Origin: a virus
Taxonomy: Duplodnaviria; Heunggongvirae; Uroviricota; Caudoviricetes
DNA length: 7,566 nucleotides
Direction: 5' to 3' (one strand)
Virus record (IMG/VR): IMGVR_UViG_2698536559_000017
A program made the position numbers and the translations under genes. The notes beneath the pieces were generated by a model. It saw nothing but the letters and a program-made list of their open reading frames with translations. It did no database searches and had not been told where the DNA came from. Each line of letters begins with the position of its first letter. Position 1 is the stretch's first letter. Of the stretch, positions 1,082 through 3,438 are shown piece by piece.

Positions 1082-1381
1082 ATGAGAACGTATTTATCTG
1101 GCTTGACTGCCAGCGGTTATGCACACCCCCAAATTATCCCCGGCGCTATTTATCTGGATAAGAACGGTAACAGAGTAACGGTAAAAGAACTGATGTTTGA
1201 CCGTGTGTATTTTATCCGTGATGGCTATTCATTTCTTAGTTCGCTGAACGTGGAGATCTTTATTAGCAGATTCAGTCGGGAAATCCCGCTTTCCAGAAAT
1301 AACCATGTGTCATGTATGGATGTTGATAAAAAACTACAGGAACTAAAAAACATGATTGCCGCGTGGAGAGAGCAGAAATGA
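1082..1381 (+). CDS. hypothetical protein (99 aa), translationally coupled to the downstream replication gene
   Basis: ATG 1082 lies 6 nt after the previous stop, with GGGGA upstream. Its stop TGA 1379..1381 overlaps ATG 1378 of the alpha-like gene (ATGA). No recognisable motif. Confidence 0.5.
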   Translation: MRTYLSGLTASGYAHPQIIPGAIYLDKNGNRVTVKELMFDRVYFIRDGYSFLSSLNVEIFISRFSREIPLSRNNHVSCMDVDKKLQELKNMIAAWREQK

Positions 1382-3195
1382 AAAAAGCGCCAAATTTAAA
1401 ACACCAGCCGCGTGACAAAATGACGGAAGTCATCATTTTTGCGGGTAGTGATGCGTGGGCACATGCGAAACAGTGGCAGGAACAGGACGGGCGACTGGCT
1501 GGCGATAACGTGCCACCTGTCTGGCTTGGAGAGCAACAACTTGCCGAACTGGACAACCTGCAAATCGTACCGGACGGACGCTATCGCGTGCGTCTCTATC
1601 AGGCGGGGTTATTGCGTCCGGGGCTTGTTAATACCATCGGGCAGAAACTGGCAGTGGCAGGTGTCAGGGATGCTGATTATTACCCTGAAGGAATGCACAG
1701 CCAGAAACGGGAGAACTGGCGCGAATATCTGGAACGTGAACGGGCAGAGCAGGCGGAAAAGAAAAAGGTAGTTGAACTGCCTGTAAAGAAAAAAGAGCGG
1801 GTAAAAGACGATAACGCTTCATCACTGGCGCTTAACCAGATGGGAGCAAGTCAACGCGGCGAAGTTCTCCTGGCACATTATGGCGGTGAACTGGCGATTC
1901 ATGCTGACTCTGACACTGTTCACCATTACAACGGCGTTGTATGGGAGCCAGTACAGGATAAAGAATTACAGCGAGCTATGGCACAGATTTTCATTGATGC
2001 GGAGATCAGCTATTCGCAGAACGCCATCAAATCGGCGGTCGATACAATGAAGTTAAGTTTGCCTGTAATGGGGAATACCGCCCGTAACCTGATTGGATTC
2101 AGTAACGGTGTTTTTGATACCCGGACAGGCGATTTTCGGGAGCACGACAAAAACGACTGGTTGTTAATTGCCAGTGAATTACCTTTCAGCCCACCAGCAG
2201 AGGGGGAAACGCTGGCAACACATGCGCCGAATTTCTGGAAGTGGTTACGCCGTTCGGTGGCTGAGAATGACCGTAAAGCGGATCGCGTACTGGCGGCGTT
2301 ATTCATGGTGCTGGCGAACCGGTACGACTGGCAGTTATTTCTTGAGGTAACGGGGCCGGGTGGAAGCGGTAAAAGCGTAATGGCAGAGATTTGCACCATG
2401 CTGGCGGGTAAGGCCAACACGGTATCGGCAAGCATGAAGGCGCTGGAAGATGCCAGAGAACGCGCGTTAGTGGTTGGCTTTTCGCTGATTATCATGCCGG
2501 ATATGACCCGCTACGCTGGTGATGGCGCAGGAATTAAGGCCATTACAGGCGGCGACAAGGTGGCAATCGACCCGAAGCATAAAGCCCCCTACTCAACACG
2601 CATTCAGGCGGTCGTGCTGGCGGTGAACAATAACGCCATGTCATTCAGTGACCGCAGCGGTGGGATATCACGTCGTCGGGTAATATTCAATTTTTCGGAA
2701 GTTGTACCGGAGAACGAACGTGACCCTATGCTGGCTGAAAAAATAGAAGGAGAGCTGGCGGTAGTGATTCGCCACCTGCTTACACGCTTTTCTGACCAGG
2801 ACGAAGCTAAACGCCTGCTATATGAGCAGCAGAAATCAGAAGAAGCCCTGGTGATAAAACGCGAGGGCGATTCGCTGGTGGACTTCTGCGGCTATCTCAT
2901 GTCGTCGGTAATGTGTGATGGCCTGTTAGTGGGTAATGCTGAAATTATTCCGTTCAGCCCGCGCAGGTATCTCTATCACGCCTATCTGGCGTATATGAGA
3001 GCACACGGATTCGGTAAGCCCGTAACACTGACTCGCTTCGGTAAGGATATGCCAGGGGCAATGGCGGAATACGGCAGGGAGTATATGAAACGGAAAACGA
3101 AGCACGGTTTGCGCTCAAACGTGACACTGACGGAGGAATCAGAAGACTGGATGCCATCATGTGTACCGGTCACTAATGACGATAGCAAAAATTAA
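1378..3195 (+). CDS. P4 alpha-like replication protein: N-terminal domain of unclear type, D5_N-like region, SF3/P4-family primase C-terminal NTPase domain, C-terminal putative iteron-binding region
   Basis: Open frame of 610 codons (track start GTG 1363; ATG 1378 is coupled to the upstream stop). Walker A GPGGSGKSV sits mid-protein, with a Walker B-like hydrophobic stretch ending in D (VVGFSLIIMPD). A D5_N-like motif (GFSNGVFDTRTGDF) precedes the NTPase. The gene is followed directly by TGTTCACC iterons, the alpha-binding repeat type of P4 ori/crr. Confidence 0.85.
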   Translation: MKKAPNLKHQPRDKMTEVIIFAGSDAWAHAKQWQEQDGRLAGDNVPPVWLGEQQLAELDNLQIVPDGRYRVRLYQAGLLRPGLVNTIGQKLAVAGVRDADYYPEGMHSQKRENWREYLERERAEQAEKKKVVELPVKKKERVKDDNASSLALNQMGASQRGEVLLAHYGGELAIHADSDTVHHYNGVVWEPVQDKELQRAMAQIFIDAEISYSQNAIKSAVDTMKLSLPVMGNTARNLIGFSNGVFDTRTGDFREHDKNDWLLIASELPFSPPAEGETLATHAPNFWKWLRRSVAENDRKADRVLAALFMVLANRYDWQLFLEVTGPGGSGKSVMAEICTMLAGKANTVSASMKALEDARERALVVGFSLIIMPDMTRYAGDGAGIKAITGGDKVAIDPKHKAPYSTRIQAVVLAVNNNAMSFSDRSGGISRRRVIFNFSEVVPENERDPMLAEKIEGELAVVIRHLLTRFSDQDEAKRLLYEQQKSEEALVIKREGDSLVDFCGYLMSSVMCDGLLVGNAEIIPFSPRRYLYHAYLAYMRAHGFGKPVTLTRFGKDMPGAMAEYGREYMKRKTKHGLRSNVTLTEESEDWMPSCVPVTNDDSKN

Positions 3196-3209
3196 ACTTA
3201 TGGAATAAC

Positions 3210-3438
3210 TGTTCACCACTGTTCACCCTGTCAAAAACATCTTTTATATCAGTATATTACAGGGTGAACAGTTATTTATGAACTGTTCACCAAACTATTC
3301 ACCGTTCACCTTTTTGATTATTTATTGAGCTTTAAGGGTGAACAGTGGTGAACAGTTGGTGAATAGTTTTTGTGAAACTGTTCACCCCTTAACATTATGA
3401 ATAAAAAGGGAAAATCGCAAAAGGTGAACAGGTGAAGG
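3210..3438. repeat. iteron array (ori/crr-like): 8 perfect and 4 degenerate copies of the octamer TGTTCACC/GGTGAACA in both orientations, interspersed with AT-rich stretches
   Basis: Perfect TGTTCACC at 3210, 3220, 3284, 3379. Perfect GGTGAACA at 3263, 3337, 3347, 3423. Degenerate copies at 3296, 3303, 3358, 3431. 3210..3229 and 3335..3354 are perfect 20-bp inverted copies of each other. AT-rich blocks lie at 3231..3260, 3311..3335, 3395..3420 and 3440..3470. Confidence 0.85.

Follow-up and report, generated by a model that had tools for sequence, protein, structure and literature searches.

In the satellite phage P4, the N-terminal half of the alpha protein is a DnaG-type primase (PMC2777425), and Pfam places in it a Zn_Ribbon_Prim domain (residues 30-66) and a Toprim_3 domain (residues 210-299), both within the first 319 residues. 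The P4 record (NC_001609) gives the label 'ori type 1 repeat' to the octamer TGTTCACC, both where it occurs in ori (9310-9413) and where it occurs in the two 120-bp units of the cis replication region (crr), the latter lying directly 3' of alpha. Among the phage-inducible chromosomal islands (PICIs) of Escherichia coli, EcCICFT073's pri-rep-ori segment replicates a plasmid, an ability lost when rep or ori is deleted or mutated, and the PICI origin is described as an AT-rich region between two iteron sets (PMC6092414). In the pathogenicity islands of Staphylococcus aureus (SaPIs), the Reps are self-loading superfamily 3 (SF3) helicases whose winged helix reads iterons located directly 3' of rep, and the ori is made of two oppositely oriented iteron sets around an AT-rich centre (PMC9371898). 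Here we describe a replication module, composed of a Rep gene and of the iteron array that follows it, in a 7,566-nucleotide stretch of Caudoviricetes DNA (IMG/VR record IMGVR_UViG_2698536559_000017), which as a whole is called the window below. Judged from its sequence, the module is very probably the replicon of an E. coli PICI-type integrative satellite, that is, a self-loading initiator-helicase together with its cognate origin.

The evidence comprises the homology of the helicase and DNA-binding parts of Rep, an iteron identical to that of P4, the collinearity of the array with the P4 ori core, the conservation of the array together with the co-variation of iteron and wing, and a PICI gene order. 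The Rep-origin pair is real, and it represents a new allele within a type of replicon that is already known from phage satellites; by its sequence, this allele is one that joins a PICI backbone and N-terminal domain to P4-type origin specificity. The current understanding of such replicons is left unchanged by these findings. What they add is the position of an origin of replication that RefSeq does not annotate and the recognition that the window comes from a mobile island of the satellite type.

The Rep protein and its relation to P4 alpha

The Rep gene (also 'Pri-Rep') occupies positions 1378-3195 of the plus strand and encodes a replication initiator and SF3 helicase of 605 aa, as indicated by its open reading frame (ORF), its Shine-Dalgarno sequence, its homologues and its identity with P4 alpha. 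In the ORF listing the frame runs from 1363 to 3195 (plus strand) and opens at a GTG, giving a 610-aa numbering. The ATG at 1378 is, however, the likely start codon, because a GGAGAG Shine-Dalgarno sequence lies 8 nt upstream of it and because it forms an ATGA overlap with the stop codon of the preceding DUF4222 gene; the RefSeq homologues of Rep are 605 aa long and begin with MKxAPN. Of the limits 1363-3438 originally proposed for the module, the right one thus agrees with the array, which ends at about 3440-3442, while the left one should probably be moved from the GTG to this ATG.

The original prediction, made from the letters alone, had recognised an alpha-like SF3 NTPase with Walker A/B and D5_N-like motifs. 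This part of it is well borne out. In a BLASTP comparison with P4 alpha (NC_001609), residues 145-595 of Rep align with residues 320-771 of alpha with a single gap, 230 of the 452 positions being identical (51%, E 9e-163). The aligned part includes a D5_N domain at 1861-2250 (plus strand; PF08706, E 9.9e-14; aa 167-296 in the 610-aa numbering) and an SF3 ATPase core at 2350-2676 (plus strand; PF19263, or DUF5906, E 1.1e-10; aa 330-438 in the same numbering). The latter also matches PDB 7OLA (E 3e-10), which we take to be the structure of the SaPI5 PriRep. The catalytic motifs of the core are kept in P4 alpha, namely, all on the plus strand, Walker A (GPGGSGKS, 2353-2376), Walker B (FSLIIMPD, 2479-2502), motif C (VVLAVNNN, 2611-2634) and the arginine finger (SRRR, 2659-2682). 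Finally, a C-terminal winged-helix origin-binding domain is encoded at 2866-3156 (plus strand): its 97 residues (aa 497-593) match the crystal structure of the corresponding domain of P4 alpha, PDB 1KA8 (E 1e-24), and the Pox_D5 model of Pfam covers aa 501-596 in the 610-aa numbering (E 6.7e-13).

The likeness to alpha is, nevertheless, limited to the helicase and DNA-binding two-thirds of the protein. P4 alpha has a primase half, whereas neither Zn_Ribbon_Prim nor Toprim_3 is found in Rep by Pfam, and the alignment of the two proteins begins only at alpha residue 320. In place of the primase domains, Rep carries an N-terminal domain of about 130 aa (1378-1773, plus strand) to which no Pfam model corresponds. 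RefSeq names Rep a 'DNA primase family protein', a label that is unsupported here, as no primase domain is detectable in the protein.

The iteron array and its co-variation with Rep

A 239-bp array directly follows the gene and contains, between 3210 and 3430 and on both strands, eight exact copies of TGTTCACC and three with one mismatch, where the base composition would lead to expect 0.0076 exact copies; only three more exact copies occur in the remaining 7.3 kb of the window. The GC content of this region is 35%, against 52% for the Rep gene. As had been proposed, the first octamer starts at 3210, which is 15 positions past 3195, where the stop codon ends, and the octamer is the repeat found in both ori and crr of P4. 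Exact copies lie on the plus strand at 3210-3217, 3220-3227, 3284-3291 and 3379-3386, the last being followed by CCTTAAC as in P4 ori, and on the minus strand at 3263-3270, 3337-3344, 3347-3354 and 3423-3430. Copies with one mismatch read TATTCACC at 3296-3303 (plus) and 3358-3365 (minus) and CGTTCACC at 3303-3310 (plus). In addition, a degenerate minus-strand copy with two mismatches, which reads GGTGAAGG on the plus strand, stands at 3431-3438 in the place of the last P4 ori repeat. The true repeat unit is longer than the octamer, about 10-11 nt, and can be written (A)ACTGTTCACC.

The array as a whole is a large imperfect inverted repeat. When the left half is reverse-complemented, the right half shares 72% identity with it, with an alignment score of 69 against 10±4 (maximum 23) for shuffled sequences. 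Each half is laid out as three repeats, one opposite repeat with CC(C/T)TTAAC, about 35 bp of AT-rich DNA and two further repeats, so that the left half-origin (3204-3322) shows the pattern ++ / AT-rich / - / +++ and the right one (3323-3442) the pattern --- / + / AT-rich / --. This is the arrangement of the P4 ori core (three repeats, one, AT-rich, two; positions 9303-9425 of the P4 record), with which the right half is collinear at 74.5% identity (79/106) and the left half, once reverse-complemented, at 80% (89/111). The left half also resembles the P4 crr units, but more weakly (68%). A reading of the array as one crr-like and one ori-like half was dropped, as both halves are closer to the P4 ori core than to crr. 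Between the two inverted iteron sets lies a central AT-rich spacer of 26 bp with 19% GC (3311-3336), which from its composition and from its position, equivalent to that of the AT-rich region in PICI and SaPI origins (PMC6092414, PMC9371898), is the presumed melting site.

In P4, ori and crr are 4.5 kb apart. In the 28-kb locus of E. coli strain 2015C-4136CT1, in which Rep gene and array are found with 100% identity, no second cluster of TGTTCACC is present, which argues that the element has one compact, inverted-duplicate origin and not an ori with a distant crr. Rfam gives two matches at 3236-3416, to the plant microRNA precursors MIR821 (38 bits, gathering score 249) and MIR5380 (33 bits, gathering score 150); both were rejected as artefacts produced by the origin's hairpin-like symmetry. 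A full-text literature search for TGTTCACC returned only unrelated primer sequences, and no iteron sequences are given in the supplements of PMC6092414.

Gene and array together are widespread, being present at a coverage of at least 80% in 659 of 5,426 complete E. coli genomes. In eight TGTTCACC-type arrays, 75% of the iteron columns are invariant compared with 42% of the spacer columns (Fisher p = 4e-7), and in all the relatives examined an array stands at the equivalent place, where its absence would have spoken against the original prediction. One relative is an island of E. coli A1.S1.160 (Rep at 1500-3305 and array at 3306-3700 of its locus). Its Rep has a helicase core 90% identical to the one described here and an origin-binding domain that is near-identical up to AEYGKEY, after which a different beta-hairpin wing follows; its array iteron is TGTCTACC (TTGGTAGACAGTT) and not TGTTCACC. 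In other words, nature has performed a wing swap. Since the array is kept in relatives and the iteron changes together with the wing, the array is functionally tied to the C-terminal domain. Natural variation of this kind locates iteron specificity in the winged helix's wing, encoded here at 3088-3129 (plus strand), and the sequences point to this wing as its determinant.

In vB_KppS-Ant (LR881103), a PICI-like element that forms capsids, the Rep shares 74.5% identity with ours (89% for the helicase core and 81% for the origin-binding domain), and the same kind of array, made of (G/C)TGTTCACC repeats, lies downstream; the N-terminal domain is, in contrast, just 45% identical, and the element carries capsid, portal and terminase genes of its own. 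Serratia phage Scapp has an alpha-like gene (391-2910) with a Prim-Pol N-terminus and a divergent C-terminus, and about ten copies of GAAAAGTGCAA at the equivalent location. The kinship with EcCICFT073 (CFT073 chromosome, 1,380,000-1,389,000) extends to the gene order: both elements have YlcI, Icd-like, DUF4222, Rep, ori, a small ORF, SSB (single-strand DNA-binding protein) and PerC in this succession, the Reps have the same three-part structure and are 48% identical over their full length (68% in the N-terminal domain), and an array of equal architecture lies immediately 3' of rep. The two elements differ in their iteron, which is TGTCTACC in EcCICFT073, and in the origin-binding domain, which has diverged to 32% identity. 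In its helicase core, Rep is as close to P4 alpha (51% identity) as to EcCICFT073 (45%). EcCICFT073 also has capsid genes, unlike the island in which this exact module is found. The SaPIs are distant in sequence and differ in their iterons of 5-6 nt, in a Pri of the archaeo-eukaryotic primase (AEP) type, either separate or fused, and in their Gram-positive host.

Taken as a whole, the element presents the architectural features by which the replicon of Gram-negative PICIs is defined (PMC6092414), namely int, alpA, a unidirectional rep and an ori 3' of rep with two iteron sets flanking an AT-rich region, in addition to synteny and homology with EcCICFT073 as a validated member. The original assignment to a P4-type family is therefore right as to the kinship of replication protein and iterons, but the element itself belongs by its architecture to the EcCICFT073-like PICIs and not to P4.

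Proposed mechanism, priming and alternative readings

From the homology of Rep to P4 alpha, to the EcCICFT073 Pri-Rep and to the SaPI Reps (PMC9371898), we infer a sequence of binding, melting, double-hexamer loading and host priming, as well as inducibility of the module. Specifically, the winged helix of Rep would bind the (A)ACTGTTCACC iterons of the two inverted half-origins, and this binding would melt the AT-rich DNA between them, at the 26-bp centre. SF3 hexamers, probably one per half-origin, would then assemble and unwind outward in the 3'-5' direction, while the island SSB would coat the single strands. Priming would most likely be supplied by host functions, because no primase domain is recognisable in Rep. 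As in EcCICFT073, expression would depend on AlpA and set in upon induction by a helper phage.

The N-terminal domain deserves separate consideration. Profile comparison (hhalign) with residues 1-320 of P4 alpha reveals no relationship (probability 0.2, as reported by the program), and the domain matches phrog_2850. Its family is small, with 136 cluster representatives in a search of 1.84 billion proteins, and the only residues conserved across it are A4, P5, Q10, E17, G23, A26, P47, L55, G77, A92 and R121. Given this sparse conservation and the lack of an E...DxD signature in the family, a primase activity of the domain is unsupported. The domain is found ahead of four NTPase classes (D5/SF3, DUF927, RepA-like AAA_25 and VapE) and follows a DUF4222 gene in every case; conversely, DUF4222 precedes the Rep family in all E. 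coli relatives, even where a RepA-like part stands instead of the SF3 helicase. The DUF4222 protein may be a functional partner of the domain. In the alpha-like family the priming module appears as an interchangeable part, being a zinc ribbon plus Toprim in P4, an AEP Prim-Pol in Scapp and an N-terminal domain without Pfam model in the PICI Reps, and what stays constant is the D5 helicase, the winged helix and the iteron array downstream.

Two mildly novel leads arise from these comparisons, the portability of the N-terminal domain and a possible origin cross-talk with P4. It is conceivable, though we regard it as rather doubtful, that the domain is a portable module for priming or replisome recruitment and, separately, that Rep could activate or inhibit P4's origin, and P4 alpha that of the island. 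As a portable module, it could be a minimal non-canonical primase or else an adaptor that brings host DnaG or DnaB. As to the second lead, an iteron common to P4 and to the island predicts that, in E. coli, PICIs and P4-like satellites engage in cross-talk, which, if true, would link two satellite families at the replication level.

Some observations weigh against the module being an active PICI replicon that works as proposed. On TIGR01613, a profile that had been suggested as a check, Rep scores 97.8 bits (E 5e-28, over positions 3-295 of the 304 in the profile) and so matches but narrowly misses the curated cut-off of 108.7; P4 alpha scores exactly 108.7, only just at the cut-off, and the EcCICFT073 Rep 110.2. 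A scan for promoters and terminators around the array gave nothing above chance. In the 2015C-4136CT1 island that holds this exact module no capsid or terS genes are recognisable, so that its satellite life cycle is a presumed one. The two-site mechanism of P4 cannot be literally transferred, as P4 needs both ori and crr and the island has one cluster. Lastly, with an N-terminal domain to which no function is assigned, the priming step is a guess and the weakest step of the mechanism.

Of the alternative readings, the one that survives best, although we consider it improbable, is that the island is defective and the module a decaying relic within it, unable to fire any more. The lack of recognisable packaging genes just mentioned would fit such decay, as would the pseudogene adjoining the array, which is frameshifted and holds a tandem repeat of 95 bp that varies, and fragments of Ant/BRO-N at the far end of the island. 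Against this reading, the 605-aa reading frame is intact with all catalytic motifs present, all 11-12 iterons are kept and are better conserved than the spacers, and the identical gene and array recur in an independent genome and are widespread.

Slightly less probable still is that the array serves chiefly for regulation or incompatibility and not for initiation, being either a Rep operator over read-through into the SSB, ProQ and PerC genes or a 'handcuffing' site for copy control. Iteron-binding initiators often autoregulate, as known from iteron plasmids, and the array does lie between rep and co-oriented downstream genes with no terminator found. Yet the homologous segment of EcCICFT073 is needed in cis for replication (PMC6092414), and the collinearity with the functional P4 ori core extends to the AT-rich stretches. 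A regulatory role could exist alongside the origin function.

A genuine P4-family satellite, in which the array would be a crr, a separate ori would be situated at another place and priming would be done by alpha in the manner of P4, is the least credible reading and already largely refuted, because the identical octamer, the position of P4 crr directly 3' of alpha and the 68% match of the left half to crr units are outweighed by the single iteron cluster of the 28-kb locus, by the greater closeness of both halves to the P4 ori core, by the absent primase domains, by the EcCICFT073 gene order and by the gene content. On this last point, when all proteins of P4 were compared by tblastn with the window and with four related islands, homologues were detected only for int, alpha and vis/alpA, and none for sid, delta, psu, epsilon, cI, gop, beta or cII, in agreement with what Fillol-Salom et al. 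describe for E. coli PICIs (PMC6092414). A t-alpha-like terminator, present in P4, is likewise missing at the island array.

The island and its neighbouring genes

In strain 2015C-4136CT1 the module belongs to an island of about 16 kb that is bounded by an integrase and flanked by two core genes, rcnR and thiM. It encodes, in this order, a tyrosine integrase, DUF6387, AlpA (PF05930, E 4.8e-16), YlcI/YnfO, an Icd-like protein, DUF4222 and Rep, followed by the origin and by SSB, ProQ/FinO and PerC. Near-identical modules are located at other chromosomal sites, and sister islands with a rep about 96% identical carry prohead protease/capsid genes and terS, while some islands have none. This setting agrees with the view, already expressed in the original prediction, that the window derives from a satellite or integrative element and not from the core chromosome.

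Upstream of the module, a YlcI/YnfO-family gene (58-378, minus strand) diverges from a gene for an Icd-like cell-division inhibitor (559-762, plus strand). The 180-bp intergenic region that separates them is AT-rich, and the same arrangement opens the EcCICFT073 operon. The DUF4222 gene follows at 1082-1381 (plus strand; PF13973, E 1.6e-16) and is translationally coupled to Rep through the ATGA overlap.

Downstream of the origin, the island SSB gene lies at 4121-4564 (plus strand; PF00436, E 1.4e-15; TIGR00621, 59.5 bits and over the cut-off). Since an SSB gene is kept at this place in EcCICFT073 and in other islands, the protein is a probable accessory of the replicon. Two further genes are co-oriented with rep, one for a ProQ/FinO-family RNA chaperone (4621-5145, E 1.4e-24) and one for a PerC-family regulator (5142-5414, E 2.1e-33), whose start is overlapped by the former. 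PerC homologues encoded on E. coli PICIs are reported to activate the locus of enterocyte effacement (LEE) in some cases (PMC6092414). At 5796-6656 and 6653-7315 there are two adjacent paralogous genes, 31% identical over 98 aa (E 3e-13), that match neither Pfam nor PHROG.

The 95-bp tandem repeat next to the array is present in the window in two copies that are 99% identical (3512-3701), and in three copies in the otherwise identical 2015C-4136CT1 element (locus 11906-12192). It sits in a truncated paralogue (3621-3782) of the 84-aa ORF at 7312-7566, the two being 65% identical over 43 aa. As 95 is not a multiple of 3, a change in the number of copies shifts the reading frame.

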